From a virus (Duplodnaviria > Heunggongvirae > Uroviricota > Caudoviricetes), in IMG/VR virus record IMGVR_UViG_2541047866_000010: a DNA stretch of 19,671 nucleotides, one strand, 5' to 3'. Each line of letters opens with the position of its first letter. Position 1 is the first letter of the stretch. Made by a program: the position numbers and the translations under genes. The notes beneath the pieces are model-generated. The model saw only the letters and a program-made list of their open reading frames with translations. It had not been told where the DNA came from and searched no databases. This document shows positions 1 to 15,564 of the stretch, piece by piece.

Positions 1-59
1 CGGCAGAAGCAGAAAAAGCTTATTATGCTTCCATCGGAAACGATGATCTGGCAGCCTGA
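1..59 (+). CDS. insF: IS3 transposase OrfB, C-terminal fragment (partial, 5' end outside window)
   Basis: Translates ...[18 protein letters not shown] then stop at 57-59, identical to the C-terminus of the 7791..8681 transposase ORF. Confidence 0.8.
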   Translation, partial: AEAEKAYYASIGNDDLAA

Positions 60-101
60 GTTCACAGATAAAACACTCTCCAGGAAACCCGGGGCGGTTC
101 A
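1..101 (+). mobile_element. IS3-family insertion sequence, right end only (cut by window edge); terminal inverted repeat ends at 101
   Basis: Bases 1-101 are the exact reverse complement of 7749-7849, the right end of the complete IS3 copy. Terminal repeat TCCAGGAAACCCGGGGCGGTTCA ends at 101. Confidence 0.85.
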
Positions 102-892
102 TAACTACCGAACCGTGACGCGATGCATAACCTTTAGCATCTGGCCCTGTATCTGATGGGTCATGCGCAGAGACAACAGCGCCTTTCGCTTTCCATCCGA
201 GTTTCTTGTGCGCATCGGTTGCGGCTTCAAGCCATTCACGTTTGATGATTGCCATATCACTTGCGCTTACTGGCTCACCAAGCCAGATGTGACGATACAG
301 TGTCGGGTTTCTGCGTTTACACTCTTCCATCTCCAGACGGAGAACTTCAGGAAAGTGCGGGTTGTCGGTGTAGTTCACCGTCAGCAGACAAATATCATCG
401 GGAGGGTTTACTACGAATCGCTGATAGGTATCGTCGAGGATGTTTTTCGGGTTGAAGCTCACCCATATTTCGGAAAATGGCTTGCGGATGGTTGGTATCA
501 GGATATCCCATGATTCCTTCGTTACCGCTTCCGCTTCCTCCACCCAGCAGATATCAATGCCTTCGAGCGATTTAATCTTCGTCGGGTTGTTTTTGATGCC
601 GTAGAACATGAACTCAGCATTCGTCCCGAGATGACGAATCATGGAACGCTGAATTTCAAACTCAGCCGTATACCCTTCACGCTCTATGGTGTCTTCAAGC
701 AGCCGGATTACCGAATCGCTGATACTGTTTTGCAGTTCACGAGCGCAGAGAATACGCACTGGCTGCCGACGCGCCGCTTCAACAAGCAGTCTCGCAATTG
801 CCCATGATTTACCGCTACCTCGACCGCCTTTGGCGACTTTGTAGCGATGCGCCTCAATGAACGGTTCAAAGATAGGATTAATCGAGGTCATT
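102..892 (-). pseudogene. Terminase large subunit, N-terminal ~263 codons, interrupted by the IS3 end at 101
   Basis: Own translation from ATG at 892 gives MTSINPIFEPFIEAHRYKVAKGGRGSGKSWAIARLL... with a Walker A motif (GGRGSGKS). The frame stays open into the IS3 end and off the window, so it is absent from the ORF track. Start overlaps the small-subunit stop. Confidence 0.75.
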
Positions 893-1328
893 TTCCGAAT
901 AGAGTACTCATCGGTGATGTTTCAATCTGGATTGCGCCGCCGTCTTTGCCTGTTAGCTCGTGATCAACCTTGTCGCGCCATTTATCCTTCTGTCGGTTCT
1001 TAAGCCAGAAGATGGCAGCTGTTGTATCAGGCGGGTAATACTTCTCAAGAGGAGTTTCGACAATTCTGTTTTCAATAACACGAATATCGATGTCTGGAGC
1101 CACGAAGCCCATAGCGCGTTGATAAAGACGGTCACTAACTTCTGCATCAGCGACGGCCTTACCCTTTTTTATGGACTCCGAAAACTCAGGATAATCAAGC
1201 TTCCACTTGTTAATAGTTGACTCACTGACTTCGAAGAAATCAGCAAGCTCTGCATCGGTGTAGCCCAGCAAGCACAGTTTGCGTGCCTGTTCGGCATACG
1301 CCTCTTGATACTTTGTTGGGCGCGCCAT
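888..1328 (-). CDS. Terminase small subunit (HTH-containing, Terminase_2-like)
   Basis: 146 aa with N-terminal HTH (GYTDAELADFFEVSESTINKWK) typical of small terminases; sits immediately upstream of, and is translationally coupled to, the large subunit. Confidence 0.7.
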   Translation of the reverse strand: MARPTKYQEAYAEQARKLCLLGYTDAELADFFEVSESTINKWKLDYPEFSESIKKGKAVADAEVSDRLYQRAMGFVAPDIDIRVIENRIVETPLEKYYPPDTTAAIFWLKNRQKDKWRDKVDHELTGKDGGAIQIETSPMSTLFGK

Positions 1329-1330
1329 GT

Positions 1331-1573
1331 TTATGCTCCGGTGGTGAACAGGTCTAACGCTTCCTTCGATTTACGCACCGCTTCGATAGTGCGGGTCGTG
1401 ATATCTGAATTAGCGCCGCCTGACTGGAAGTGAATTTTGAATAGCTCAAGCTTCAGTTCGTCAGTGCCAATGAACTGAAATGCTTCCTCTGCGGCTGCGT
1501 TCTGGTTCATGACCAGCTTGTAAATCTCTAACTGGAATTTCTGTTCTTCAGTCATGGGAATAATCTCTGCCAT
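1331..1573 (-). CDS. Hypothetical phage protein (80 aa)
   Basis: Clean ORF with ATG start, tightly packed just upstream of the small terminase gene on the same strand. No recognisable motif. Confidence 0.4.
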   Translation of the reverse strand: MAEIIPMTEEQKFQLEIYKLVMNQNAAAEEAFQFIGTDELKLELFKIHFQSGGANSDITTRTIEAVRKSKEALDLFTTGA

Positions 1574-1800
1574 TGTTGGCTCCGTTTATCCGTTAAAAGG
1601 GATATCAGTTAAGTTATCCCGTGTAGGGTATAAGCCATTGTCGAGACCACTCATTGAATGGTCTCTGCAATAACCGATGTCTTTCCATCAGTCCGCCACC
1701 ACAAAGAATCTTTTTTGCCATAAGGCAGGAGGTTCATCTTTCAGTGGCTGCCAGTGTTATTTCCCCACTTTCTGGCTTGGGTTGTTTCGCTGTACTGCCG

Positions 1801-2343
1801 TTAATTGGTGAGTCCGGGGATTACGGTTTGCCCGTGCTGTTCAAGGCGTTCAATTCTCGCCAGTAGCTGAGGCTTCTTAATTTTTCCCCAGCGATTAAGC
1901 AGGCGGCCTGACATGCTGGCAACATCCTTCTCTTTCATGTACTCCAGCATTACGGCATTTCTCTCTTCTTCAAATTGACGATGACCAACCTGAAGCATGG
2001 CGTACATCCAGTTGAATGCGTTGATGTAAGCAATTTTGATACGCATTGCTTCTTTTTTGGTGTAGGACATAACCAAAAGCATCAACCCATCCTTGCGGAG
2101 ACGGTAGAATTTTTGCGGCTTACCATTCTGTAACTCATTGTTTTTATAGCAAAGCTCAAAGTTGAGCTTTGTATCAAACTCAGGAGGGCAAGCTTCTATG
2201 GTTCGTTCAATGTCACGAACCACGTTCTTCGGCAGCTTTCCAAATGCTTTTGCCACCATAAAAGAATCTGTAACCGGATCGTTGTTTGCTACAAAAATTA
2301 GGTCTCTGAAATCTATATCGTTAACAACGGTTGGGTAGTTCAT
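1801..2343 (-). CDS. Rha-family phage regulatory protein (start probably MNYPTVV at 2343; track ORF extends to 2412)
   Basis: Rha-like N-terminal region (DSFMVAKAFGKLPKNVVRDIERTIE ... KFYRLRKDGLMLLVMSYTKKEAMRIKIAYINAF). AAAGG lies 7-8 nt before the ATG at 2343. Confidence 0.55.
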   Translation of the reverse strand: MNYPTVVNDIDFRDLIFVANNDPVTDSFMVAKAFGKLPKNVVRDIERTIEACPPEFDTKLNFELCYKNNELQNGKPQKFYRLRKDGLMLLVMSYTKKEAMRIKIAYINAFNWMYAMLQVGHRQFEEERNAVMLEYMKEKDVASMSGRLLNRWGKIKKPQLLARIERLEQHGQTVIPGLTN

Positions 2344-2688
2344 TGCGTCTTTACCTTTTAGAAAGATGAGCCTGTTCGCACAGAAAAGCCGCCCCGAGAT
2401 GGTCGCCACCATATACGGCAGTTCTCAGGCTCAGCTTTCTGAAAGACTCGGGATTGTTACGCGCTGCGATGCGCGGTTTACTGCAGATATAAAAAAGCCC
2501 CGAGAATGCGAGGCTAAATCCTGGTATTTGTAATGACTGGCTCTTATCTCAACGCAGCCCCTTACCGCACGCCAGATGCTCAATATCAAGCATCAGCAAT
2601 GAGATGTTTAATCTGGATTCACTCCAGAAGTGATCACCACCCTGTCTACAGAGCCAGATGTGAAGGATGATGAGTAAAATTATCGCTA

Positions 2689-3126
2689 TCATCGAAGGCA
2701 TTGCGTCCTGATGTACTCCTGCAGGTAGTTAACCTGCGCGGTTATCCTGTCGATTCCACTTCGGAGACGGTAATAATTGAGTTCAGCATCTGCTGTAAGT
2801 CTTGGGTTTTCTCCATCGCCCATGCTGCTGGCTCCGGTCGTTGACTTTGCACAGGTGGCGGCGACTTGCAGGCGCTTACGCCCAGCAGAAACATCAGCAC
2901 GGAGACTTTCGATAGTCGCGTTAGCATCAGCAAGCTCCTTTGTGTATCTTGCGTCGAGTTCTGCTACATCACGTTGACGCTTCCGCATATCAGCGATGAT
3001 GGATGTGGCTTTATCGCGCTGCTCTTTGTAGGCGATTGCATTATCACGGTAATGATTAACAGCCCATGACAGGCAGACGATGATGCAAATAATCAGAGCG
3101 GAGATAATCGCGGTGACTCTGCTCAT
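2689..3126 (-). CDS. Rz: Rz i-spanin
   Basis: 145 aa; N-terminus [30 protein letters not shown] matches lambda Rz as recalled; follows R with overlapping stop/start. Confidence 0.9.
2742..2933 (-). CDS. Rz1: Rz1 o-spanin lipoprotein, embedded in Rz in another frame
   Basis: 63-aa ORF wholly inside Rz, with lipobox LLGVSAC and proline-rich mature part ([13 protein letters not shown]), as in lambda Rz1. Confidence 0.8.
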
Positions 3127-3599
3127 ACCTCAATCTCTCTGACCGTTCCGCCAGCCTCTTTGAATTTTGCAATCAGGTTGTCAGCCTTATGCTCGAACTG
3201 ACCATAACCAGCGCCCGGCAGTGAAGCCCAGATATTGCTGCAACGGTCGATTGCCTGACGAATATCACCGCGGTCAATCATCGGTAAAGCGCCACGCTCT
3301 TTAATCTGCTGCAATGCCACAGCGTCCTGACTTTTCGGAGAGAAGTCTTTCAGACCAAGCTGCTTACGGTAGGCATCCCACCAACGGGAAAGAAGCTGGT
3401 AGCGTCCGGCGGCTGTTGATTTGAGTTTTGGGTTTAGCGTGACAAGCTTGCGAGGGTGATCGGAGTAATCAGTAAATAGCTCTCCGCCTACAATGACGTC
3501 ATAACCATGATTTCTGGTTTTCTGCCGTCCGTTATCAGTTCCCTCTGACCACGCCAGCATATCGAGGAACGCCTTACGTTGATTATTGATTTCCACCAT
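3123..3599 (-). CDS. R: Endolysin R (lambda-type lytic transglycosylase)
   Basis: 158 aa [52 protein letters not shown]..., essentially the lambda R sequence as recalled. Confidence 0.95.
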
Positions 3600-3906
3600 C
3601 TTCTACTCCGGCTTTTTTAGCAGCGAAGCGTTTGATAAGCGAACCAATCGAGTCAGTACCGATGTAGCCGATGAACACGCTCGTTATATAAGCGAGATTG
3701 CTACTTAGTCCGGCGAAGTCGAGAAGGTCACGAATGAACCAGGCGATAATGGCGCACATCGTTGCGTCGATTACTGTTTTTGTAAACGCACCGCCATTAT
3801 ATCTGCCGCGAAGGTACGCCATTGCAAACGCAAGGATTGCCCCGATGCCTTGTTCCTTTGCCGCGAGAATGGCGGCTAACAGGTCATGTTTTTCTGGCAT
3901 CTTCAT
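3583..3906 (-). CDS. S: Holin S (class I, dual-start MKM motif)
   Basis: 107 aa [39 protein letters not shown]..., matching lambda S107/S105 as recalled. Confidence 0.95.
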
Positions 3907-4020
3907 GTCTTACCCCCAATAAGGGGATTTGCTCTATTTAATTAGGAATAAGGTCGATTACTGATAGAACAAATCCAGGCTACTGTGTTTAGTAATCAGA
4001 TTTGTTCGTGACCGATATGC

Positions 4021-4061
4021 ACGGGCAAAACGGCATGAGGTTGTTAGCGCAACCTCATGCC
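4021..4061 (-). other. Perfect 12-bp stem hairpin (GGCATGAGGTTG / CAACCTCATGCC, 6-nt loop) followed on the minus strand by GTTTTGCCC
   Basis: Arms at 4032-4043 and 4050-4061 are exact reverse complements. Lies in the Q-S intergenic leader about 150 nt upstream of S. Confidence 0.6.
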
Positions 4062-4495
4062 ACCCGCTTTCACGAAGGTCATGTGTAGAAGGCCGCAGCA
4101 TAACTATCACTGATGAATTCAGGATAGCCAGTGGCTACGGCTCAGGTTGGGTTGTGGCGGTCGGTGCTGAACTCCGACTTAATGACGATAGGCGTGTACC
4201 GACGCCTCGTTTTACTTCCTCCGCTTTCACGGCTTCACCCTAGACCAGCTTTACGAAATCCTCGTAAACCTAACCGCGGCAGATATGACCGGCACGGTGT
4301 GCCATATCACGGACCGGCGGGTGTCTCGTTCACCTGATTAACGCATCAGCCTGCGTATTCACCACAACGATAAGAGTACTGCGCGGCACCTTTCACCAAT
4401 TCCGCGAGGTCTGCGGGTTCAATGCTCTTACCTGTTGTGCAAACAAAAAAGCCACCGTTGCAACTTAAGAGTCACTAACGGCAGCTTACCTTCTA

Positions 4496-4525
4496 ATTAT
4501 GGCTAAATGGATAATTGCATGTCAA
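4496..4525 (-). promoter_or_regulatory. Candidate late promoter PR' (-35 TTGACA, 18-nt spacer, -10 CATAAT) overlapping the 3' end of Q
   Basis: Read on the minus strand: TTGACA (4525..4520) lies inside the last Q codons, CATAAT (4501..4496) just after the Q stop. Confidence 0.45.
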
Positions 4526-5021
4526 GGTTTTTAACAGCAACATGCTTAACTTTCTCAACACGTTTACGCATTTTGAAAGCATTTTGCATTGGCTGGTATA
4601 AAACAAATAATGACGCTTTCAGGATGTCGTCAATTTCGTTTCTACAGGTTGCCAGTGAAGGTTTTCTCCATCCCTCGCCACCACGTCCACACATCTTGCG
4701 TGGCTTTGCAGTCGCGTGATAGTAGGATGCAATTGCTCGCTTAGATGAACCATGAGCGTAGTAGCTGAGGAGGATGCCAAAGGCTTTCTTGTCAATGTAC
4801 ATGACGGAATCAACGACCTGAGAAATCAACATTCCATCATCATCATTACACATTGGCCTTGTCATAATTCTTCCCGGCTCTACGCTCTCCATGAACTTCG
4901 CTATTACGCTGCTCATGCGCTTTTCCAGACGACCTGAATAAACCCATGCGCCCCACAGTTCAAGCCAGCCATTCAGCCACTCGTGCTGCTCTTTGGTGAG
5001 GTTTAGTTCTCTTATGCTCAT
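4503..5021 (-). CDS. Q: Late antiterminator Q, phage 82/21 type (not lambda Q type)
   Basis: 172 aa with ELWGAWV, RPMCNDDDGMLIS and LLSYYAHG motifs resembling the Q proteins of phages 21/82 as recalled. Position is between the nin region and the lysis cassette. Confidence 0.7.
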   Translation of the reverse strand: MSIRELNLTKEQHEWLNGWLELWGAWVYSGRLEKRMSSVIAKFMESVEPGRIMTRPMCNDDDGMLISQVVDSVMYIDKKAFGILLSYYAHGSSKRAIASYYHATAKPRKMCGRGGEGWRKPSLATCRNEIDDILKASLFVLYQPMQNAFKMRKRVEKVKHVAVKNLDMQLSI

Positions 5022-5206
5022 CGTCTTCCCCTCTTGCCTTGTTTGACCATCAGGACGCCGTTAACTATTACGTGACGCTCGCCTTTGCTGTCTCGGTTGT
5101 ACTTGAGCACTGTTCCTCTTGCGCAGGAAAGCATCCTCGCCACTTCGGTCTGATTGCCTCGTGTCTGGATAAGAAGCTCTGGTATCGTTTGAATTGTGGC
5201 GTTCAT
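5018..5206 (-). CDS. ninH: NinH-like protein
   Basis: 62 aa; core TIPELLIQTRGNQTEVARMLSCARGTVLKY resembles lambda NinH (TIPDMLVEAYGNQTEVARRLKCSRGTVRKY). ATGA overlap with Q start. Confidence 0.75.
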   Translation of the reverse strand: MNATIQTIPELLIQTRGNQTEVARMLSCARGTVLKYNRDSKGERHVIVNGVLMVKQGKRGRR

Positions 5207-5565
5207 GCGTTCTCCAGTTCGGTGATTTTTATTCCAAGCCTTCCGCCTGGTACTTTCACACCACGAATTACGCGAATGTCATCGAATTGCTCGTCGTCTT
5301 CCGCAAATCCGGCGTGGATAAGGGAGTCGAGTAAACCTTTCAGGATGTTGTCGAGGTCGCGGCGGCGGGAGTCTGGAACGTCTGCGATGACTTTGATACG
5401 GAGTCGTGATTTGGTGAAAATGTCTAACTTGAGTTGGCGGATGATTTGCTGAACGTCTTTTCGGTATTTCTGGCCTTTATCGCTTATGTAATATTGGCTT
5501 CCCCGTCTTCGCCAGTAGGTATTCACCGACGGCGGGTATGGAAGCACAAACTGATATTCGTTCAT
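5203..5565 (-). CDS. rusA: Holliday-junction resolvase RusA
   Basis: 120 aa; motifs LPYPPSVNTYW, RRRDLDNILKGLLDSL, GGRLGIKITELENA parallel E. coli RusA. Confidence 0.85.
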   Translation of the reverse strand: MNEYQFVLPYPPSVNTYWRRRGSQYYISDKGQKYRKDVQQIIRQLKLDIFTKSRLRIKVIADVPDSRRRDLDNILKGLLDSLIHAGFAEDDEQFDDIRVIRGVKVPGGRLGIKITELENA

Positions 5566-5852
5566 GACTTAATCTTCCCCTCCCTCAGCAGTATCGCCTG
5601 CGTTCTGATCACGCCTTCGAGGTGGTAAAGTCTGGCGTCTTTGTTGTCGAGATTATGGGTGCGTCGGTCGATTTCATCGTGACACGCACTACAAGCCCAT
5701 GCACCGATCAGGTCGTCAGGCTTCATTCCCGTTCCGCAAATTCCAGCCATCCGGTAATGTGCCAGAACTGTAGTTTCAGGGTTGCCATTGCATACGCCGT
5801 AAATACGTACCTGACATTCTCTTCCGCGCGCTTCTTTGCGTAGGTTAGCCAT
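5562..5852 (-). CDS. ybcO: YbcO-like protein (DUF1364, putative nuclease)
   Basis: 96 aa MANLRKEARGRECQVRIYGVCNGNPETTVLAHYR...ACSACHDEIDRRTH, near-colinear with DLP12 YbcO as recalled. Stop/start overlaps on both sides. Confidence 0.75.
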   Translation of the reverse strand: MANLRKEARGRECQVRIYGVCNGNPETTVLAHYRMAGICGTGMKPDDLIGAWACSACHDEIDRRTHNLDNKDARLYHLEGVIRTQAILLREGKIKS

Positions 5853-6574
5853 TAAGCAGCCTCCCCTGTTACTTTCAGCATTCCGTTATCGAGCAGCTTT
5901 CTGGTCAGCCACTGTTGACCACGCCCGGTGATTTTTGTGGTGAACGATATCTGTATTCCGTGATTTGTGTTGACCGCTGTTTCTTTCACTGTGAAATAGC
6001 CGCGATCCATATATTCCTGCATTGGCATATTGCGCCGGGAACCTGAAGCAATAAGGATTTTGTGATCACGCATCCACGCAAACAGTTTGTTTTGACCAAT
6101 ACCAACAACCTTTGCAAAGTTTCCAATCAAAATTCCGCTGGCCTCGCCAACGCGATCGGCAAACTCAACTTTAGGTGCGACAATTGCGAGCTGGTTTTCC
6201 AGTTGCATTTTCTGCTCAGCAAGATCGGCAGCAAGGCGCAACGCTTCCGGTAGCGTTTTGGGGATATTAACCGCAGCTTCTTCAAGCTCTCGCCAGCGGT
6301 CAACAAGGCGAGCGGTGAACTCTGGCGACAACTGGGCAACAACGACAATACTGTCTCGCTTACCTTGTTCGCCCTCGAAGACGTAATGCTCGTACTGAAC
6401 ATTGAACCCTAAGTTATTGATTCTTTCGGAAACCTCAATTTGAGGAAGCCGGATAACACCATTTTTAGCCAGCGTTTCGATGGTACGTTTCACATTGTCA
6501 TGACGCTTACCAACCAACTCAGCAATTTCAATGCTTGTCATTTTGATGGCATTGCCATTCATTAACTCATTCAT
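5852..6574 (-). CDS. Roi/antirepressor-like DNA-binding protein (Rha-like N-terminal region plus KilAC-like C-terminal region)
   Basis: 240 aa; N-terminal MTSIEIAELVGKRHDNVKRTIETLAKNGVI is Rha-like. Size and nin-region position match HK022-type Roi. Confidence 0.55.
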   Translation of the reverse strand: MNELMNGNAIKMTSIEIAELVGKRHDNVKRTIETLAKNGVIRLPQIEVSERINNLGFNVQYEHYVFEGEQGKRDSIVVVAQLSPEFTARLVDRWRELEEAAVNIPKTLPEALRLAADLAEQKMQLENQLAIVAPKVEFADRVGEASGILIGNFAKVVGIGQNKLFAWMRDHKILIASGSRRNMPMQEYMDRGYFTVKETAVNTNHGIQISFTTKITGRGQQWLTRKLLDNGMLKVTGEAA

Positions 6575-6743
6575 CGTCTTCTTCCTCGTACATTGAGCTA
6601 TTCGGATCGCTCATCAGTTCTGCGCAGCAATCGGAGCACACGTGAACTTCAAGCACATGCAGCTTCTGACCGCAGTTAGCGCACGTTAATGCCCGCTCGA
6701 CGCTTTCTTTCTGGTATTGAAGGGATTGGGATGGGCTAAGCAT
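6567..6743 (-). CDS. ninF: NinF (58 codons, below the ORF-track size cutoff)
   Basis: Own translation [58 protein letters not shown] closely matches lambda NinF as recalled. Stop overlaps the Roi-like start. Confidence 0.8.
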   Translation of the reverse strand: MLSPSQSLQYQKESVERALTCANCGQKLHVLEVHVCSDCCAELMSDPNSSMYEEEDDE

Positions 6744-7161
6744 TATTGGCGTCCTGCATCATGAGAAATACAATCATGGCGGCGCGGAGTGGAGATTCAC
6801 CGCAGAAGTAGTAGCCAGGAATATTTTCCCATTCCCAACAACCTTCCTCTAAATCACCTCCTGACCATGCGCACCATTCTTTTTCCGCTGTCATCCACAT
6901 AGTGCTGATTTTGCTTTCAGTGATAATTGGCCACGCGTATTCAGGATTATTGCAAGGATTGAAGCAATTTCCGTTTGAAGAACGGAAGCCATTAATATCC
7001 CTTTTTTGCGTCTGCCAAATAGGACCTCTTTCGTCAGTGGGGATCTCAGAATCGAAGTCTGCTTCGTCATCAGGTATGAAGAAATGCTCCTCCATATCTA
7101 AAGCCTCACATACTCGTCTGTTAATTTCAAAATCACTTAACTGTGAATAATCCATTGTCAT
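6736..7161 (-). CDS. Hypothetical nin-region protein (possibly NinX/DUF2591-like); start at ATG 7161 or 7155
   Basis: About 140 aa between ninE and ninF; the ATG at 7161 overlaps the ninE stop (ATGA). Family assignment is a weak recollection only. Confidence 0.4.
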
Positions 7162-7334
7162 TTCCTCGCACGATGTCTTAGCAACCGGATATCCCACAGG
7201 TGAGCCGTGTAGTTGAAGGTTTTTACGTCAGATTCTTTTGGGATTGGCTTGCGTTTATTTCTGGTGCGTTTCGTTGGAAGGTATTTGCAGTTTTCGCAGA
7301 TGATGTCGGTGATACTTCGTCGCTGTCGCCTCAT
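7158..7334 (-). CDS. ninE: NinE
   Basis: From internal ATG at 7334: [50 protein letters not shown]..., close to lambda NinE as recalled. Confidence 0.8.
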
Positions 7335-7737
7335 TCGTACCTCCTGTCGGTAAATCTGACACCCTGACCAATAGCCCATGCTGTTGTGTACTCGATCAGA
7401 CTTGCCATACGCTTCACACTCATCTGCGCGCTGCTTTCGCGAATGTTGACGTATTCGCCTTCAAGCCCGGGCAAAACATCAGCTTCCTGTTTTGTTGCCA
7501 CTGCATGACCGCTGATCAACAAAACCTTCCATTGTTCTGGTTTTAACCATTTATCGCGCCACTGAACTTGCCTAGCGATATCTGCGACCATCGCGTGAAA
7601 TTTTGCGTTCTGGTCAAGGTTGCGCTTGTAGTCAGTAATGCGGATGGTGACTGGCTTGTCTTTATCGAGTGGTGTTGCGAGGATGGCATTTATTGCAGCT
7701 TGCTGTTGTTGCTTAGTTCGGAGGAATATTGTTTGCT
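7331..7737 (-). CDS. ninB: NinB (recombination protein), GTG start at 7737; its ribosome-binding site is separated from the start by the IS3 insertion
   Basis: ...[65 protein letters not shown]... parallels lambda NinB. Upstream in-frame codons are IS3 sequence. The AAGGAG formerly 6 nt upstream now lies beyond the IS3 at 9061-9066. Confidence 0.75.
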
Positions 7738-7790
7738 TCACTGAATACTGAACCGCCCCGGGTTTCCTGGAGAGTGTTTTATCTGTGAAC

Positions 7791-8681
7791 TCAGGCTGCC
7801 AGATCATCGTTTCCGATGGAAGCATAATAAGCTTTTTCTGCTTCTGCCGGAGGAGTATGGCCCAGCCTTTCCAGCAATCGTCGATTGTTATACCAGTCCA
7901 CCCACGTGAGTGTGGCCAGTTCCACTTCTGCACGGTTTTTCCAGCTCTTACGGTGTATTACCTCCGCTTTGTAAAGGCCATTGATGCTCTCCGCCATCGC
8001 GTTGTCATACGAGTCGCCTGTACTTCCTGTTGATGCCAGTAATCCGGCTTCCTTAAGCCGCTGTGTGTAGGCCAGCGATACATACTGAGAACCTTTATCA
8101 CTGTGATGGACTGTGCCGGACGGTCGACGGGCCCATAACGCCTGCTCCAGAGCATCCAGCACAAATGTCGTTTCCATAGACGATGAGACCCGCCACCCCA
8201 CGATGTATCCGGCAAACACATCAATGATGAACGCCACATAGACGACCCCCTGCCATGTGCTGACGTAAGTAGAATCAGCCACCCACAACTGGTCAGGACG
8301 TTCTGCCACGAACTGACGGTTTACGCGGTCGCCTGCGACAACGGCTTTCCGGCTGATGGTCGTACGGACCTTTTTACCACGGAGAACACCGGCAAGTCCC
8401 ATAACCGCCATGAGACGTGCCACAGTGCATCTGGCCACTCTGATACCTTCCCGTAACAACTGACGCCAGACTTTACGCACACCGTATACCTTGTGATTTT
8501 CATCGTATACGCGCTGTATCTCTTTCTTCAGCCAGTCATCGCGCTGCGCACGGGCACTGCGTTTATCCGGATGATGTCGCTGTTGCTGACAGTGGTAATA
8601 CGTTGACGGGGCAATATGCAGTTCGCTGCATAGCGGTCCGACCCCGTACTGCTCACGCAGCTTATCCAGCAGTGGCATCAT
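7791..8681 (-). CDS. insF: IS3 transposase OrfB (DDE integrase domain)
   Basis: [30 protein letters not shown]...; -1 frame relative to orfA with overlap across an A-run at 8678-8690. Confidence 0.9.
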
Positions 8682-9004
8682 TTTTTCCAGAGGCGGTCGA
8701 ACTCCGCCTTCGCAAAATAAGCGGAAGCCTGGCGAAGGATATCGTTACTGCGGCGCAGTTCACGATTTTCACGTTCCAGCTCTTTCAGACGCTGACGTTC
8801 AGCGGTGGTGAGCCCGCCATCACCGCCTCCGGTATCCCGCTCATGCTGGCGTACCCAGACACGCAGAGTCTCCGGTGTACAGCCAATCTTTGGGGCAATG
8901 GAACAAATTGCCGCCCACTGTGAGTCATATTCGCCCTGACTTTCCAGAACCATACGAATCGCCCTCTGACGGACTTCGGGGGAAAAACGAGTATTTTTAG
9001 TCAT
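8678..9004 (-). CDS. insE: IS3 transposase OrfA (HTH)
   Basis: [60 protein letters not shown]... with leucine-zipper-like C-terminus. Confidence 0.9.
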
Positions 9005-9065
9005 CCTGTTTACCTCTTTCTCAGGGAGTTTAGTCTCCAGGATTCCCGGGGCGGTTCATACTCCT

Positions 9066-9251
9066 TTATTTTTTATGCCTGTAACCCCATTCTTCCAGCA
9101 ACCTTGCGGCGTACCACCCAAGAAACAAAGGAAAGAACATTACAATGAGATATTTCCCGCCACGGTCAATGTTCGAAATTGACCAGATTACGATGTAACC
9201 AGTGCAGGACAGGAATATTACAAACCCCAAAAAGCTACTTCGTCGACTCAT
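9066..9251 (-). CDS. Small predicted membrane protein (~61 aa, two hydrophobic segments)
   Basis: ATG at 9251 preceded by AAGGAG at 6 nt; two hydrophobic stretches (FLGFVIFLSCTGYIVIWSI and YLIVMFFPLFLGWYAARLL); start overlaps the stop of the upstream ORF. Confidence 0.4.
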   Translation of the reverse strand: MSRRSSFLGFVIFLSCTGYIVIWSISNIDRGGKYLIVMFFPLFLGWYAARLLEEWGYRHKK

Positions 9252-9253
9252 GC

Positions 9254-9568
9254 TCACTCCTTCACTTTGATTCCAGCGGCGCGGATAGCCTCTACATCGC
9301 TTTCGTATTGCGATTCTGCACCTGAGTCATAGCCAATGTGATAATCACCGGGAAGTGGGCCTTTCTTTGGCTTTTGCAGCTCAATTTCAATAGCTGCTCT
9401 CGATGCCTGCCACGTTTGCCAGTGGCCTTGAACATCGTCCATCACGTATTGACCACCAATATCACCACTGCCAATTTCATGGTGATTTTCAGGGTAACGG
9501 ATAAGGTCTGAAGATTCGCCCCCCACGTCGTAACCAACTCTCTTCAAACTGGCATCTGCTTTCGTCAT
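9254..9568 (-). CDS. Hypothetical protein (104 aa); may be the 3' part of a frameshifted gene together with 9489..9671
   Basis: ATG-initiated ORF with no obvious ribosome-binding site; overlaps the upstream Cys-rich ORF by about 80 nt in a different frame. Confidence 0.35.
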   Translation of the reverse strand: MTKADASLKRVGYDVGGESSDLIRYPENHHEIGSGDIGGQYVMDDVQGHWQTWQASRAAIEIELQKPKKGPLPGDYHIGYDSGAESQYESDVEAIRAAGIKVKE

Positions 9569-9671
9569 CTTTCATAAGGCAGTCACATTCAATAAAAATC
9601 GGCTCTCCCCAAGGAGTAGAACCTCCGCTATCACACATTCCTGTGTTATTGCACTTTTGGCACTTGCTCAC
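9489..9671 (-). CDS. Small Cys-rich protein (CxxC...CxC, zinc-ribbon-like), GTG start with good ribosome-binding site
   Basis: GGAGG 5 nt before GTG at 9671; N-terminus MSKCQKCNNTGMCDSGG...IECDC. The frame ends shortly after a G6 run (9519-9524 on the plus strand as C6). Confidence 0.35.
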   Translation of the reverse strand: MSKCQKCNNTGMCDSGGSTPWGEPIFIECDCLMKDDESRCQFEESWLRRGGRIFRPYPLP

Positions 9672-9683
9672 ATTAACCTCCGA

Positions 9684-9890
9684 TTAACTCACAAAACGCC
9701 ACGCCACTTTTGCTACGACAACAGGCATAACACCGATAATCACCCACAGAAAAATGCTACCGAAAAGCACACCAACCAGGTCTTTACCTTCGCCTACCAA
9801 CCGGACAAAACTGCTGGCAACCACAATGAACGTCGCCACCATCCACATAGCACCGAGAATCCTCAATGCAGAAAAAATCAACTCAACCAC
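9684..9890 (-). CDS. Small predicted membrane protein (68 aa, two hydrophobic segments), GTG start
   Basis: GGAGGG 7 nt upstream of GTG at 9890; two hydrophobic segments; immediately downstream of the helicase terminator. Confidence 0.45.
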   Translation of the reverse strand: MVELIFSALRILGAMWMVATFIVVASSFVRLVGEGKDLVGVLFGSIFLWVIIGVMPVVVAKVAWRFVS

Positions 9891-9905
9891 GATTTACCCT
9901 CCCCC

Positions 9906-9937
9906 AAATAAAAAGGCCTGCGATTACCAGCAGGCCT
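9906..9937 (-). terminator. Rho-independent terminator after the helicase gene (8-bp stem AGGCCTGC/GCAGGCCT, then TTTTATTT on the minus strand)
   Basis: Perfect inverted repeat at 9914-9921 and 9930-9937, followed on the minus strand by a U-rich tract (plus-strand AAATAAAA at 9906-9913). Confidence 0.6.
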
Positions 9938-9962
9938 GTTACAAGCTCAGTGATGTAGATGG

Positions 9963-11339
9963 TCATACGTCAGCCCCTTGTGCATATCGTCTGCCACGCG
10001 CAGCAGGTGCATTTGATGCTGTGCAAATCTGTCTGGCTTCATCCTGGTCACATGCAACAAAGTGTCCGTTGCAGAACCGCTGGTAAACCGTACCAAGTGA
10101 GCCAAAACGGTTTTTCGTCACGATGATTTCAGCAAATGGCGCGGCGCTACTGTTCTCGTCATATACCGCTTCCCGATAGAGCATGATGATTGAGTCTGCG
10201 TCCTGTTCAATGCTTCCTGAATCACGCAAATCTGCGTTTGTCGGGCGTTTGTTTGGTCGCTTCTCAACATCGCGTGAAAGCTGACTCAGGGAAATAACCG
10301 GTGTTTTCAGGTCTTTCGCCATCGCCTTCAGGCTTCCGGAGATGTGAGCAATTGCGAGGTCGTTGCGGTCTGCTTTCGGCTTCTCAATCAGGCCAAGATA
10401 ATCCGCCATGATGAGTGAGAGGTTTGGATTTTCCTGTTTGTGCCGTTCTGCGATTGAGCGTATTTCTTCGACCGATAATCGCGAGGCATCGACTACCCAT
10501 ACATCCAAATCTGCAAGCTGACTCATGCCGTTAGCAACACGTGCCCAGCCCTCGTCATCCATCGATGCAGGATTTCGCAGTACGCTAACCGACATCCTCC
10601 CGGCGTTGGCAATGCTTCGCTCTGCAATCTGCAATGCGCTCATTTCCATTGAGAAAATCAATACCCCGCGCCGGACGTCAGAACCAGGAATAACGCGGCT
10701 TGCAACGCCTTCGGCAATCTTCAGCGCCAGTTCGGTTTTCCCCATACCAGGACGAGCAGCGATTATCACCAGGTCTTCCGCGTTCATCCCTCCGGTGATG
10801 GCATCAAGTTCTTCGATTCCGGTCTTCAGGGTATCGGACTCTTCTCCGTTCCTCAGACGCCTGTCAAGCGTGTCAGTGTAGTCGGTGATGATTTCCCCTA
10901 ACCGTACAGGTTTAACCTCGTCACGGGGCTTTCTGATGGCTGAGAGACGTTTTACAAGTTCATCCATCGCCTGACTCGATGCGTCGATGGTTCCGCTTTG
11001 GATTGGTTCACGCATTTCATCCATGATTTCCAGCACCAGACGGCGGTGATAGTTATCCGCGACCATTCCGGCATATCCCTTCAGGTTTGCGGCGCTCGGG
11101 CAGTTTTTGCTGGTCATCAGGATTGACGTGAAATGCTCCTCTCCGCACGCCTCGGCAACCATCAGCGCGTCGATTAGGTTTCTGTTTCTCGCCTGCTTCC
11201 GGATAACCTCGAAGGCTTTCCGGTAGAGCGGAATTGAAAACGCTTCCGGCTCCAGCGTTGCAAGAACGTCACTGGCGGTTGGAGTTAATCCACCAATCAG
11301 CAGGCCACCGATAACGCTCGCTTCGATATCCTGTCTCAT
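9963..11339 (-). CDS. Replicative DNA helicase, DnaB family (P22 gene 12-like)
   Basis: 458 aa with Walker [16 protein letters not shown], DnaB-like N-terminal domain and RecA-like C-terminal motifs. ATGA overlap with the initiator gene. Confidence 0.9.
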
Positions 11340-12283
11340 GCAATCCCCCTGTCTGCAAACTTCCCTTCCCGAACTCCCGTTAACGAGTCTTCTCTCAGCA
11401 GGTAATCAAAATCAGCCGTCCAGCCCGTGTCGTTGTCTCCGAAGTAAAACGGCTTGGCCTGATGCACAAACGCCCTGACATACGCTCTGAAACCGTCCAC
11501 GTTTGGCGTTTTCAGTTGCGGGATGATTTTCTTCAGGCGGCGTTTTCGTTTCTCGTTGACCGCAACAGCGTGTGGCAGTCTGTCACCGACTTCGGTGTTG
11601 TAGGCGTTCAGGAAGGATTCGTAGTCGATTCGTTCTGCCTTGCGACGTTCAGGTTTAACCTGCCCATCGCCTCCCCCATTGGGGGGTAGGGGGGTATTAT
11701 TTATATTCTTGTTAATACCTTCTTGTTCATGATGTGCGGTTGTTTGTGCGGCTTCATGTGCGCTTTCATGTGCGGCATGTACGCTGAAAGCCGCGCTATT
11801 GCTGGCTTCATCATGTGCGGCATCATGTGCGGTTGTTTGTGCGGCTTCATGTGCGGGTAAATTGTCCATTTTTTGAGCATATTCATGGTAATTTGTGATG
11901 GTTATCACACGGCCTTTTTGCTTCTCTCCATCAATGGAGATCATCCCCTCTTTCACAAAAACCTGAAGCATCCGCTCAACCTGATCACGGCTTGCTGGCT
12001 TGCCATGTCTGTCGCATAACTGAAGACCTAAATCAGCTGCTGTCACAACCAGTTGACCGGGTTGCAGATGCCATTCATGACCTTTGAAATTCGCTTTGTA
12101 TGGCTTTCTGGCGGCATTCAGGAGAAGGTTTTCCCACAGGGTGCGAAGATAAACATCTTTCGCCCATGACTGTTTCAGAATGCTCCGGTACAACGGAATG
12201 TAACCAGTTTTCTGGTTCTCCATCCTGTTGCTCCTGCGCTCGTGTGCGGCGCTGAAATCGTAGATTTTTGCTGTATTGCTCAT
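11336..12283 (-). CDS. Replication initiator / replisome organiser (O-like, P22 gene 18-like); alternative start MENQ at 12223 has the better ribosome-binding site
   Basis: Lies between cII and the helicase; iteron-like repeats sit inside the coding sequence (encoding an Ala/His-rich linker), as in lambda O. Confidence 0.65.
11727..11857. repeat. Candidate replication origin: about eight tandem CATGTGCGG-type units, including a ~35-bp segment duplicated at 11727-11762 and 11821-11857, flanked by an AT-rich stretch (11690-11726)
   Basis: Direct repeats with 11-13 bp periodicity visible in the DNA, inside the O-like gene, adjacent to TATTATTTATATTCTTGTTAATACC. Confidence 0.55.
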
Positions 12284-12285
12284 AA

Positions 12286-12558
12286 CTACCTGCCTTGACG
12301 AAAGACCTTAAGAACATCGTTAAACTGACTTACGGATATGTCTTCTTTGAGAAGCTTTTCCAGAAATGCGTTTGGAATGAACGTATATCCCTCCTCTTTT
12401 GGTAGAGACGGGAGCAACGCCCTCGCCTCAGCCTTCAGAAGCTCAGTTCTGGCAACTTTCACAAAAGAGATTTGAGTTCTTTCATCAATGGAACGAAGGA
12501 AGCGCAAACGCTTAGCTTCTTTGTGTGTATCAGGTGGATTAAAGCCTTTGTTTCGCAT
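12286..12558 (-). CDS. Hypothetical protein (90 aa) between cII and the initiator gene
   Basis: ATG at 12558 with GAGG 7 nt upstream; the track ORF (181 aa) extends further upstream from an unlikely start. Confidence 0.4.
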   Translation of the reverse strand: MRNKGFNPPDTHKEAKRLRFLRSIDERTQISFVKVARTELLKAEARALLPSLPKEEGYTFIPNAFLEKLLKEDISVSQFNDVLKVFRQGR

Positions 12559-12580
12559 ATAATTACCTCGTTGGATGTTG

Positions 12581-12874
12581 TTAAAATTCCATTTGTATTT
12601 GATCAGAACGCTCGGTTGCCGCCGGGCGTTTTTTATTGGTGAGAATCGAAGCAACTTGTCGTGCCAATCGAGCCATGTCGTCGTCGACAACACCCCATTC
12701 AAGAACAGCAAGCAGCATTGAGAACTTTGGAATCCAGTCCCTCTTCCACCTGCTGATCTGCGACTTATCAACGCCCACAGCTTCCGCTGTCTTCTCAGTT
12801 CCAAGCATTGCGATTTTGTTAAGCAACGCACTCTCGATTCTTAGAGCCTCGTTGCGTTTGTTTGCACGAACCAT
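12581..12874 (-). CDS. cII: Transcriptional activator CII (lambda type)
   Basis: From ATG at 12874: MVRANKRNEALRIESALLNKIAMLGTEKTAEAVGVDKSQISRWKRDWIPKFSMLLAVLEWGVVDDDMARLARQV..., essentially lambda CII as recalled. Confidence 0.9.
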   Translation of the reverse strand: MVRANKRNEALRIESALLNKIAMLGTEKTAEAVGVDKSQISRWKRDWIPKFSMLLAVLEWGVVDDDMARLARQVASILTNKKRPAATERSDQIQMEF

Positions 12875-12931
12875 ATGTAAGTATTTCCTTAACAAATAAG
12901 AAGTTATGCGCATCAACTTATGCGCGTTGTA

Positions 12932-12975
12932 TTCCCGCATTTCGGCGGGAATGAGGACCATGACTGTTAAAGAGC
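12932..12975 (-). promoter_or_regulatory. nutR (boxA GCTCTTTA plus boxB hairpin TTCCCGC-loop-GCGGGAA)
   Basis: Between cro and cII on the minus strand. The same boxA/boxB pair recurs on the plus strand at 14067-14107. Confidence 0.6.
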
Positions 12976-12982
12976 AATTTGC

Positions 12983-13168
12983 TTATGCCGCTTTGCGGTA
13001 AGCGCTTTCTTGATACATCAGGGCGCCAGCTGTAACGACTTCCAGTCGATAGGCGTCTTTCTCTGGGATGACTTCCTTCCACTGAGAGACTGCTGCGTCG
13101 CTAATGCCTAACGCTTTAGCTACAGCACGCTGGGTTCCGAAGTGGTCGATAACATCTTTCTTGTACAT
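12983..13168 (-). CDS. cro: Cro repressor (P22 type)
   Basis: 61 aa MYKKDVIDHFGTQRAVAKALGISDAAVSQWKEVIPEKDAYRLE..., matching P22 Cro as recalled; divergent from c2. Confidence 0.9.
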   Translation of the reverse strand: MYKKDVIDHFGTQRAVAKALGISDAAVSQWKEVIPEKDAYRLEVVTAGALMYQESAYRKAA

Positions 13169-13182
13169 AGACTCGCTCCGAA

Positions 13183-13248
13183 ATTAAAGAACACTTAAAT
13201 TATCCACTAAAGGAATCTTAAGTCAAGTTTATTTAAGATGTCTTAACT
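13183..13248. promoter_or_regulatory. OR operator region with three 18-bp P22-type operators (13183-13200, 13206-13223, 13231-13248); divergent PR/PRM promoters
   Basis: ATTAAAGAACACTTAAAT, ACTAAAGGAATCTTAAGT and ATTTAAGATGTCTTAACT all fit ANTNAAGNNNNCTTNANT. The c2 ATG at 13249 directly abuts the third operator, implying a leaderless PRM transcript. Confidence 0.75.
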
Positions 13249-13899
13249 ATGAAAACTCAATTGATGGGAGAGCGCATTCGCGCTCGGAGAAAAGAACTCA
13301 AGATCAGGCAGGCCGCACTTGGAAAGATGGTCGGCGTGTCTAATGTTGCCATATCTCAGTGGGAACGCTCTGAGACAGAGCCAAATGGAGAGAATCTTCT
13401 CGCCCTGGCTAATGCGTTGAAGTGTTCCCCTGACTATCTGATGAAAGGAGAGGAAAGTCTTTCAAACATTGCCTATCACAGTAGGCATGATCCAAGAGGG
13501 TCATACCCTCTGATTAGCTGGGTGAGCGCAGGATGCTGGATGGAAGCTGTAGAACCATATCATAAGCGTGCAATAGATAACTGGTACGATACAACCGTAG
13601 ACTGTTCAGAAGATTCGTTTTGGTTGGACGTGAAGGGAGACTCAATGACGGCTCCGGCCGGTCTCAGTATCCCTGAAGGAATGATAATACTCGTCGATCC
13701 TGAAGTAGAGCCGCGTAACGGGAAACTGGTAGTTGCAAAGCTCGAAGGAGAAAACGAGGCAACTTTCAAGAAGTTAGTTATTGATGCAGGCAGGAAGTTT
13801 CTAAAACCACTTAACCCACAATATCCGATGATCGAGATCAACGGAAACTGCAAAATCATCGGCGTAGTTGTCGATGCAAAACTAGCAAACCTTCCATAA
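13249..13899 (+). CDS. c2: Prophage repressor C2 (P22 type; LexA-like S24 peptidase C-terminal domain)
   Basis: 216 aa MKTQLMGERIRARRKELKIRQAALGKMVGVSNVAISQWERSETEPNGENLLAL..., near-identical to P22 C2 as recalled. Confidence 0.95.
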   Translation: MKTQLMGERIRARRKELKIRQAALGKMVGVSNVAISQWERSETEPNGENLLALANALKCSPDYLMKGEESLSNIAYHSRHDPRGSYPLISWVSAGCWMEAVEPYHKRAIDNWYDTTVDCSEDSFWLDVKGDSMTAPAGLSIPEGMIILVDPEVEPRNGKLVVAKLEGENEATFKKLVIDAGRKFLKPLNPQYPMIEINGNCKIIGVVVDAKLANLP

Positions 13900-13923
13900 G
13901 GGGGCATTCGCCCCTTTTTTTTT
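13900..13923 (+). terminator. Rho-independent terminator downstream of c2 (GGGGC-ATTC-GCCCC then T9)
   Basis: Hairpin at 13901-13914 followed by nine T at 13915-13923, directly after the c2 stop. Confidence 0.65.
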
Positions 13924-13958
13924 ATTTCCTTTAAAAATCAAAGCCAAACTTAAGTTAC

Positions 13959-14020
13959 GAAAGAAAATTTAAGTTTTCTTCAAAAATGCTCTTGACCATT
14001 AATTAAAGAGATCTTAAATT
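13959..14020 (+). promoter_or_regulatory. OL/PL region: P22-type operator (14002-14019) overlapping PL (-35 TTGACC 13992-13997, -10 TAAATT 14015-14020); second near-consensus operator around 13959-13976
   Basis: ATTAAAGAGATCTTAAAT matches the 18-bp consensus exactly; promoter hexamers have 17-nt spacing and point toward N. Confidence 0.5.
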
Positions 14021-14066
14021 TAAGCCATCAGCAGGACGCTGGAAGCCAAACGGAACAGATTGGCAG

Positions 14067-14107
14067 GCTCTTTAACATTGATGGGATTGTCCCGCCGAAA
14101 TGCGGGA
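14067..14107 (+). promoter_or_regulatory. nutL (boxA GCTCTTTA plus boxB hairpin CCCGC-CGAAAT-GCGGG)
   Basis: Same boxA and identical boxB hairpin as nutR, located between PL and the N-like gene. Confidence 0.65.
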
Positions 14108-14420
14108 ACCAAAGAGTAGTTGGCTTTGGGGTGACGTGAAGTGCAGCTGCACGACGGCAACCGGAAGATAAGCACCCGGCGCGTCACCGCCAAAGTCAAT
14201 TCCATAGGCGTTATGCAGCCGCCACCATATTCAAGAAAGCTGCACAAGAGGTAGGAGGATTTATGTGAATGCATAACTTCAAAACCGAGGTTAATTAAAT
14301 CTCTCGATCCGAGCATCGACCTATTAGGTGGCGAGATGCTCTTTCTGCCCCTCAGTTCGAGGGGCCAGAAACCACTTTGCAATCACTATCAATTCCAAAG
14401 TTGTTTCATCGGAGGTCAAC

Positions 14421-14720
14421 ATGACAGTAGTCATTACATATCTGGCTGACGATAACGCCAGAAATCGCCGCAGAGCACGCAGACAGGCTCAACGTGAACA
14501 GGCGATGCAAGAACAGCGACTGGCGCGAAAAATTGCGCTAAAGCTCTCTGGTTGCGTCAGAGCGGATAAAGCAGCATCACTCGGAATCCTTCGCTGCAAG
14601 AAGGCAGATGAAGTCGAGAGTAAACAGAATCGTATTTACTACCGCAAGCCACGCAGTGAAATGGGTGTGACTTGTGTTGGTCGCCAGAAAATGAAATTAG
14701 GCAGCAAACCACTTATTTGA
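14421..14720 (+). CDS. N: N-like transcription antiterminator (arginine-rich motif)
   Basis: From ATG at 14421 (GGAGG 5-6 nt upstream): MTVVITYLADDNARNRRRARRQAQREQAMQEQR..., an arginine-rich motif like lambda/P22 N proteins. First gene after PL/nutL. Confidence 0.65.
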   Translation: MTVVITYLADDNARNRRRARRQAQREQAMQEQRLARKIALKLSGCVRADKAASLGILRCKKADEVESKQNRIYYRKPRSEMGVTCVGRQKMKLGSKPLI

Positions 14721-14728
14721 GGTGATAT

Positions 14729-15199
14729 ATGACAAAATCATGGAGCGTACCTTTTCCTGAATCAGAAACTGAACATGATGGAATGCCTGTTTTCTGGAGA
14801 TTCCAAGCGACAGTTGAAGAAGATGGAATCAAAATATTCGCACTTCAATATATAGCTTTTCATCAGACAGAGCATTATGCATGGTTGGTTCCTGCGCATT
14901 GGATTGTTAATTTTAAACCAGCACCAAATCAGTGGTTACAGGAATGGAAACAAAGGAGAAATAGATATGCAATTAAGAAAGTAGCAAAAAATGCAGAAAG
15001 ATCTTTTGCATTCCCGACGAAGAAACTTGCCATTGAAAGTTTATTGCGCCGGAAGAAATACCATTTGATGAGAATCAAACAAGATTTGGCTGTTGTATCA
15101 ACTCTTGTTGATGGGATGAAGAATATTGATACATCAACACCAGGTATTGAATATAACTTTGGACACAACCAAGAAACAGAAAACTGGGTGTTTTATTAG
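14729..15199 (+). CDS. Hypothetical protein (156 aa), AT-rich accessory gene directly downstream of N
   Basis: ATG at 14729 with GAGGTG upstream; coding region visibly AT-rich relative to neighbours; no recognisable motifs. Confidence 0.5.
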   Translation: MTKSWSVPFPESETEHDGMPVFWRFQATVEEDGIKIFALQYIAFHQTEHYAWLVPAHWIVNFKPAPNQWLQEWKQRRNRYAIKKVAKNAERSFAFPTKKLAIESLLRRKKYHLMRIKQDLAVVSTLVDGMKNIDTSTPGIEYNFGHNQETENWVFY

Positions 15200-15303
15200 T
15201 ACGAATAAGCACTGTGTATTCATTCCAACGAGTGAATACACGGAGCAATGTCGCTCGTAACTAAACAGGAGCCGACTTGTTCTGATTATTGGAAATCTTC
15301 TTT

Positions 15304-15327
15304 GCCCTCCAGTGTGAGGGCTTTTTT
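15304..15327 (+). terminator. Rho-independent terminator (GCCCTC-CAGTGT-GAGGGC then T6)
   Basis: Perfect 6-bp GC-rich stem at 15304-15309 and 15316-15321, followed by TTTTTT at 15322-15327. Lies inside the PL operon, like lambda tL-type terminators that N-modified polymerase reads through. Confidence 0.6.
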
Positions 15328-15393
15328 ATATGCATACCAATAACGCTTCACTCGAGGCGTTTTCGTTATGCAATCAAACAGAAGGAGCATCCT

Positions 15394-15564
15394 ATGCAAC
15401 AGTTCGCTATTGCAGGGGCGGCATCGGTTCGCCCTTTCAACCCGATTTTATCGGTACAGCATTCACGAAAAAACATTTTAACCGGAGCAGACTTTAAACA
15501 ACCAAGAATGAAAAGCTTGCTCGAAAAGCTTTGGGATATTTTGAAACAACAAGGCCGTCCATGA
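15394..15564 (+). CDS. Small protein (56 aa), possibly CIII-like
   Basis: AAGGAG 7 nt before ATG. N-terminus MQQFAIAGAAS and SLLEKLWDILKQQG loosely resemble lambda CIII (MQYAIAGWPVAG...ESLLERITRKL...LIDILNQPG). Weak. Confidence 0.35.
   Translation: MQQFAIAGAASVRPFNPILSVQHSRKNILTGADFKQPRMKSLLEKLWDILKQQGRP

Follow-up and report, generated by a model that had tools for sequence, protein, structure and literature searches.

Stepwise IS629 insertion as the probable route of decay of a P22-like prophage in ExPEC/APEC-type Escherichia coli

Introduction

IS629, with its isoforms IS1203 and IS3411, is an IS3-family insertion sequence common in Escherichia coli. Its target duplications are 3 to 4 bp long, and 62% of the copies in O157 genomes lie within prophages (PMC3271280). 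Gene inactivation and genomic deletions have been attributed to it (PMC9943667), including in the IS629-disrupted prophages of O157:H7, such as stx2::IS629 and Sp5, in which lambdoid genes carry the element (PMC7430833, PMC9943667). Homologous recombination between repeated mobile elements can also rearrange O157 genomes, as in large prophage-mediated inversions (PMC8743559).

A second point of reference is the P22/Sf6/HK620-like prophage that APEC O1, S88, UM146, IHE3034 and ATCC 11775 carry between torI and dsdC. About 30 complete genomes carry an intact prophage of this kind, free of insertion sequences. Its genes run terS, terL, portal, scaffold, coat, gp4, gp10 and on to the tailspike, and it encodes an intact terminase of 471 amino acids and has no IS629. 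Here we describe a related stretch of 19,671 nucleotides (IMG/VR record IMGVR_UViG_2541047866_000010; "the window" below), in which the terminase gene is split. The window very probably records a stepwise, IS629-driven decay of a P22-like prophage: a simple insertion into the terminase gene, an independent insertion in the nin region with no crossover between these two, and further copies elsewhere. This is ordinary prophage decay of a kind already known from IS629, and no new system is involved.

Results and discussion

The window appears to hold the early and late-regulatory half of a P22-like prophage of the Sf6/HK620 type, located at torI/dsdC in an ExPEC/APEC-type E. coli. Its gene order is that of the APEC O1-type prophages, to which it is 99.9% identical and colinear once insertion sequences are removed. 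The first-pass annotation had proposed a comparison with related intact prophages, and this shows that both 102-7748 and the sequence from 9059 onward are colinear with the roughly 30 IS-free relatives. On the minus strand, the nin region extends from ninB (GTG at 7741) to ninH and includes RusA and a KilAC antirepressor (5018-7741; open reading frames with AH19K002 and APEC O1 annotation). Antiterminator Q follows at 4503-5021 (phrog_943, 4.8e-93), followed in turn by a predicted pR'-like promoter at 4525-4496 on the same strand (promoter scan, TTGACA-18-CATAAT). The minus-strand lysis cassette (2689-3906) consists of a holin (3583-3906), a GH24 endolysin (3123-3599) and an Rz-like gene (2689-3126), identified from open reading frames and the PGAP names in AH19K002. 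A tRNA gene search of the window found none.

Two inverted copies of an insertion sequence bracket the Q-lysis-terminase segment. The first-pass annotation recognized the pair correctly, since positions 1-101 and the reverse complement of 7749-7849 agree at every base (101 nt, 100%), but called the element IS3. By length and identity it is instead IS629, a member of the IS3 family rather than IS3 itself. IS3 of E. coli K-12 is 1258 bp long; the 1310-bp length found here, and best matches that are all annotated as IS629 (97.8 to 99.9% across the two copies), argue against IS3 proper. The element has the IS629 length, near-identity, TG...CA terminal repeats, orfA/orfB layout with a predicted frameshift pseudoknot, rve (DDE) domain and 3-bp target duplications, which are TAC in the nin region, TAA in the terminase gene (read over two genomes) and ATC in the coat gene. 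Its placement matches the preference of IS629 for prophages (PMC3271280). The host background here is of ExPEC/APEC type and not O157.

The complete copy occupies 7749-9058 (1310 bp, minus strand). Its 25-nt terminal inverted repeats (7749-7773 and 9034-9058, TGAACC...GGTTCA) are 92% complementary. They enclose orfA (8678-9004, HTH_Tnp_1) and orfB (7791-8681, rve and HTH_21), both on the minus strand, and at the orfA/orfB overlap lies a predicted -1 frameshift pseudoknot of the ALIL family (RF01497, 8607-8723, minus strand, 120 bits), the one Rfam family found in a scan of the window. In AH19K002, the PGAP annotation of IS629 likewise carries a "programmed frameshift" note. The copy lies 7 bp upstream of ninB and parts the GTG start of that gene from the AAGGAG Shine-Dalgarno sequence. 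It is flanked by TAC on both sides (7746-7748 and 9059-9061), at a site where IS-free relatives have TAC only once (APEC O1, CACTGAATACTCCTTT). Over 1310 of 1310 bp it is 97.8 to 98.2% identical to copies annotated as "insertion sequence: IS3 family IS629", among them copies in Stx phages, so it is a variant about 2% divergent. A look-up of the nin-region orfB variant also brought up a plasmid-borne match: the entire 1310 bp is 100% identical to a variant on large E. coli plasmids, at least 321 of them.

Of the left copy, the window holds the right-end 101 nt (1-101, plus strand), comprising the end of orfB (stop TGA at 57-59) and the IRR (77-101), with the remainder lying beyond the window start. 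Its full length and divergence are therefore read from AH19K002, the closest complete genome (99.97% identical to the window). There the left-type copy is 1310 bp long, is 99.5 to 99.9% identical to annotated IS629, and differs from the complete copy of the window at 26 of 1310 positions (about 98% identity, longest identical run 448 bp). Because the two copies are only 98% identical while the nin-region copy equals the plasmid copy, they look like different variants that arrived separately. By the same comparison neither copy is chimeric, as the nin-region copy matches the plasmid-borne variant over its whole length and so carries nothing of the left type. A second variant, the same as that on large virulence-type plasmids, would thus have inserted independently, in opposite orientation, duplicating TAC.

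The first-pass annotation described the terminase gene as truncated, running for about 263 codons into the IS end, and translation bears this out, although the ATG lies at 891 and not at 892. From there 263 codons plus 1 nt reach base 102 (102-891, minus strand; P22 gp2/PBSX type), and the product matches the first 263 residues of the intact 471-aa APEC O1 protein exactly. The fragment is assigned by PHROG to the terminase large subunit and consists of the ATPase domain alone (Pfam Terminase_3, residues 15-206, 3.9e-42), with a Walker A motif, GGRGSGKS, at residue 22. In the intact homologue, an RNaseH-like, Terminase_3C-like region spans approximately residues 305-449, a weak match under the Pfam cutoff. 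This C-terminal nuclease region is absent from the window, where terminase sequence ends after residue 263. Should the left copy match that of AH19K002, reading on into IS629 would add 53 IS-derived codons before a stop. The small terminase subunit lies alongside at 888-1328 (minus strand; phrog_309, 2.1e-68).

What lies on the far side of the left copy can be judged from a sister genome. In its contig L005, the terminase 3' half ends ...GCGCTTAA directly against an IS IRL, while the window reads IRR|TAACTACCG. Together the two junctions yield a TAA duplication, assembled from two genomes rather than one molecule, with the right-hand TAA at 102-104 of the window; intact APEC O1 reads GCGCT TAA CTACCG at this site. 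Since the 3' half abuts the IS on one side and the 5' half on the other, the copy in the terminase gene most likely arose by simple insertion, and we infer that the 3' half lies directly beyond the left IS629 in the source genome too. The earlier suggestion that the nuclease half is "missing or displaced" thus holds for its absence from the window but most likely not for displacement. The first-pass annotation had itself taken an in-frame terminase remainder past the IS, with a matching duplication, as the mark of simple insertion only, and the sister genome essentially provides it. IS629, in plus orientation, would have entered codon 264 by copy-out/paste-in transposition, duplicating TAA and parting the ATPase domain from the nuclease domain.

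The window starts within a multicopy repeat, as contig ends in short-read assemblies do, so one might ask whether a repeat overhang was misjoined there and the terminase gene is truly intact, reading GCGCTTAACTACCG without interruption. This is hardly credible. The identical junction recurs in an independent IMG/VR contig with another end point (L004, which equals window 38-8245 at 100%), it is found in a complete genome minus 3 nt, and the complementary left junction is that of L005.

A weightier alternative, though still an unlikely one, is that the source genome has lost the terminase 3' half together with portal and scaffold, by recombination between the directly oriented IS629 copies in coat and terminase or by a transposase-mediated adjacent deletion, so that a single IS joins coat' or gp10' to terminase'. 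AH19K002, separated from the window by 3 SNPs and a single 3-nt indel over 19.7 kb, has such a deletion: beyond its terminase-side IS629 lies gp10' instead of terminase, with 6829 bp missing (APEC O1 coordinates 13175-20003). From the IMG genome of the window there are also contigs that end in coat'|IS (L137) and in IS|terminase' (L004), yet none with the portal gene, although the 5-kb portal contig of the sister genome was captured. Among the 78 IMG/VR contigs returned by a portal 30-mer scan, none came from the window's IMG genome, nor was a terminase-3' contig found from there. However, the lack of a 5-kb IS-bounded contig in IMG/VR is weak evidence, the window retains the canonical TAA of a simple insertion, and L137 keeps gp10, gp4 and coat' intact (layout IS|gp16'..gp10..gp4..coat'|IS), so the AH19K002 deletion itself is absent. 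We also considered AH19K002 as a stand-in for the sequence upstream of the window and ruled it out, given the intact gp10, gp4 and coat' of L137 and an AH19K002 junction that lacks TAA.

Within this lineage, further plus-orientation IS629 copies interrupt the coat gene and the gp16-like gene, and the coat junction, with its ATC duplication, is common to L137 and to the sister genome's L157 and L005. With terminase, coat and gp16-like genes all hit, the prophage would be unable to package DNA or build heads. The O157:H7 cases concern lambdoid prophage genes; the present prophage is P22-like, and within one lineage it has been hit by several copies (terminase, coat, gp16-like, nin).

The complete copy is indeed opposite in orientation to the left one, as first noted, and kilobase-scale inverted repeats are potential inversion substrates here as in O157. 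RecA-dependent recombination of the 98%-identical copies could flip 102-7748, a form with no known function. The first-pass annotation proposed "inversion or deletion"; inversion stands, but deletion does not, because inverted copies give inversion only. The deletion risk comes from the direct-orientation copies in the coat and gp16-like genes. Its view that recombination had not yet occurred is upheld: no crossover has taken place between the two copies of the window so far, since the TAC duplication is intact, the order is ancestral and the complete IS is not chimeric. In contrast to the O157 inversions (PMC8743559), no inverted form is observed here, the repeats have diverged by 2%, and the segment spans just 7.6 kb within a dead prophage.

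The same arrangement might suggest that the Q-lysis-terminase segment inverts or transposes as a functional unit, either as a DNA switch for late-gene expression or as a composite transposon, for it is enclosed by inverted repeats of 1.3 kb that share an identical run of 448 bp and whose IRR ends both face inward. We regard this as highly improbable. Both outer ends are IRL instead of forming an IRL/IRR pair; 102-7748 keeps its ancestral position and orientation; and the copies, being different variants, inserted independently and retain their duplications. Both occur together in 1 of 5426 complete genomes, as the same isomer, and the prophage has further disabling insertions. We found no instance of the segment moving or flipping as a unit, and no sign that it works as the "IS3-flanked module" named earlier.

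The region deserves the label defective, given a terL split by IS629 and other morphogenesis genes disrupted in the lineage, and the apparent truncation should not be taken for a novel short terminase. Past annotation, where the correct name is IS629, the importance is limited. The locus does show, in a clean and datable form, a prophage being taken apart step by step by a single IS family in ExPEC/APEC-type strains, one of the copies having apparently reached the chromosome from a plasmid.

The AH19K002 junction reads IRR|CTACCG, without TAA, exactly 3 bp off the corresponding junction of the window, and an IMG/VR scan for the AH19K002-type gp10|IS junction gave no match. AH19K002 also has a 26-nt solo IRR stub next to another IS629 copy. 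Offset junctions in two near-identical genomes, together with this stub, could point to repeated targeting or remodelling by IS629 of sites within or beside IR-like sequence (the target GCGCTTAACTACCGAACCG resembles the IR tip). The outcome would be a local hot spot and IRR-side secondary strand transfers that lead to adjacent deletions, but we see this as a long shot. As for the single-base differences between AH19K002 and the window, the helicase SNP is synonymous, the SNP at 2503 falls between genes, and the change in OrfA belongs to AH19K002 alone.

Prophage content and the IS629 element

The window covers the half of a lambdoid, P22-like prophage that is concerned with regulation, replication, and late control; the late genes are encoded on the minus strand. 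Its open reading frames are, from left to right, a partial terL, terS, a DUF2560 gene, rha, Rz, endolysin, holin, Q, and ninH back to ninB, up to the IS; after the IS come helicase, an O-like replication gene, cII, cro, cI (plus strand), erf, abc, and torI. The 3' end of Q carries a near-consensus promoter in the pR' position (TTGACA-18-CATAAT; 4496-4525, minus strand), and a strong terminator hairpin (2496-2515, minus strand) lies past the lysis genes. The sole private SNP of the window in the late region (2503) is inside this hairpin. Within the O-like gene (11336-12283, minus strand), four 12-nt-phased repeats (...CATGTGCGG...) at 11728-11855 look like lambdoid origin iterons.

The complete IS element (7749-9058; 1310 bp) has 25-nt inverted repeats, orfA (HTH_Tnp_1), orfB (rve), and an ALIL frameshift pseudoknot. 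The first-pass annotation described two inverted copies of IS3. The inverted arrangement holds, with positions 1-101 a perfect reverse complement of 7749-7849, but the name was imprecise, since the best annotated matches of the window copy are all IS629 of the IS3 family (Stx phages, phage BP-4795; 97.8-98.2%). Prophages are the main location of IS629, which makes 3-4-bp duplications (PMC3271280). The matching target duplications proposed for the complete copy are present: TAC lies on both flanks, with a single TAC at this site in IS-free relatives. Just upstream of this copy, a hypothetical gene (9254-9575) is frameshifted; the same defect occurs in IS-free relatives, e.g., APEC O1, so it is older than the IS insertions.

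At the left end, the terminase large-subunit gene starts at ATG 891 (minus strand), one base from the start first given (892). As first described, it stays open for 263 codons, and after one further base it meets the IS end at 101/102. These residues are identical to the N terminus of the intact 471-amino-acid protein and keep the ATPase domain (Terminase_3) with its Walker A motif. The nuclease half, earlier called missing or displaced, is indeed absent from the window.

A probable simple insertion in terL

The far side of the left copy lies outside the window and was reconstructed from relatives. The complete genome AH19K002 (NZ_CP196258) matches the whole window save 3 SNPs and one 3-nt indel. 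There, the last 357 nt of gp10 lie on the far side of the left IS, and a 6829-bp deletion has taken out everything from the 3' half of terminase through portal, scaffold, coat, and gp4 into gp10, most of which is lost. An IMG/VR contig, L004 (UViG_2565956708_000002), matches window positions 38-8245 exactly, which identifies the window's lineage. A second contig of the same IMG genome, L137, runs from an IS end through partial gp16, intact gp10, and gp4 to a partial coat gene and an IS start; because gp10 and gp4 are present, the AH19K002 deletion is absent from the window's lineage.

The coat junction of L137 recurs in contig L157 of a sister genome (2541047866). Another sister-genome contig, L005, runs from an IS end through the partial coat gene, portal, and terminase 3' half to GCGCTTAA and an IS start. 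The intact phage has TAA once at this site, and the left junction of L005 together with the right junction of the window makes a perfect 3-bp duplication of it. The most likely state of terL is therefore a simple IS629 insertion, the outcome that the first-pass annotation had itself named as refuting its reading. Copies in direct orientation, farther left, can delete the DNA between them, and loss of the 4.7-kb portal/terL-3' segment through recombination of the coat copy with the directly oriented terL copy is a less likely alternative: no portal or terL-3' contig of the window's own IMG genome was found in IMG/VR, whereas L005 carries this segment in the sister genome. Copy-out/paste-in is the established mode of IS3-family transposition (PMC7780238), and one event of this kind accounts for each IS629 copy here.

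The TAA at the IS629/terminase junction is common to the window and L004 but absent from the otherwise 99.97%-identical AH19K002 (GGTTCA/TAA/CTACCG at window 101-104 versus GGTTCA/CTACCG at AH19K002 12101-12102). TAA would survive both recombination between IS copies and a deletion on the left-repeat (IRL) side, so this 3-nt offset needs another cause: an event at the right-repeat (IRR) end, a separate insertion close by, or an error of assembly. AH19K002 also has a third IS629 copy (405-1741), replacing the tailspike N-terminal and ant C-terminal parts (APEC O1 1162-4123). A 26-nt solo IRR stub (CTCTCCAGGAAACCCGGGGCGGTTCA) directly follows it, so one IS must have inserted within or beside the end of another.

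Two probably independent arrivals without crossover

The left copy, complete in AH19K002 (1310 bp), and the nin copy show 26 differences, and their longest identical run is 448 bp. The left-type copy is 99.5-99.9% identical to O157-type IS629, and the nin copy matches, at 100% and from end to end, a plasmid copy between omptin-type and MacAB-type genes. Plasmid records with this arrangement number at least 321; the ones listed are large (130-155 kb) E. coli plasmids. Given the 26 differences and the plasmid identity of the nin copy, the two are likely independent arrivals, and a resident plasmid was probably the donor of one, the chromosomal nin copy.

The first-pass annotation also saw an IS3-flanked module capable of inversion or deletion. 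The inverted pair could invert 102-7748 via RecA-dependent recombination, but inverted repeats cannot delete the segment between them. A 2% divergence should lower the recombination rate, not block it. That the pair has not yet recombined is well supported: the nin copy is not chimeric, its TAC duplication is intact, and the order is colinear with IS-free relatives, which together show that the copies have not crossed over. The initial observation was real and its interpretation only partly right; the biology here is ordinary and already known.

Consequences for the prophage

At least two more plus-oriented IS629 copies lie in the same prophage. In the window's lineage, these are in the coat gene (ATC on both sides) and a gp16-like gene (APEC O1 about 8510; L137, L157, L005), and ant of the sister genome carries another (about 4358), giving four or more within one roughly 40-kb prophage. 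The terL split parts the ATPase from the nuclease and, with the coat and gp16-like hits, leaves the prophage unable to form particles.

The nin copy separates the GTG start (7741) of ninB from its AAGGAG Shine-Dalgarno sequence, lying exactly between the two (7741-7748, 9059-9075); it leaves ninB without its ribosome-binding site and falls within the pR-to-Q transcript. In an O157 phage with IS629 in stx2, downstream late transcription persisted (PMC7430833); by analogy, polarity of the nin copy may be modest.

IS-free relatives and recurrent decay

The same prophage without any IS, at 99.9% identity, occurs in about 30 complete E. coli genomes, including APEC O1, S88, UM146, IHE3034, and ATCC 11775, where it adjoins dsdC and has the full P22-type morphogenesis block, from terL (471 amino acids), portal, scaffold, coat, gp4, and gp10 to tailspike. 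Of 5426 complete E. coli genomes, a single one carries both the terL and the nin insertion, and it has the same isomer. An independent IS629 is present in this prophage of another strain, BEN5202 (22549-24083, corresponding to window 10185-15848). Next to it, 5.66 kb of the immunity/replication region is deleted, from the helicase N-terminal part via O, cII, cro, and cI, ending shortly before erf; IS629-driven decay of the prophage is therefore recurrent. In a further record, L085 (SRR1314329), the plasmid-type IS629 variant lies within gp16 of another P22-like prophage (9624-10933), an independent insertion into a phage of this type.
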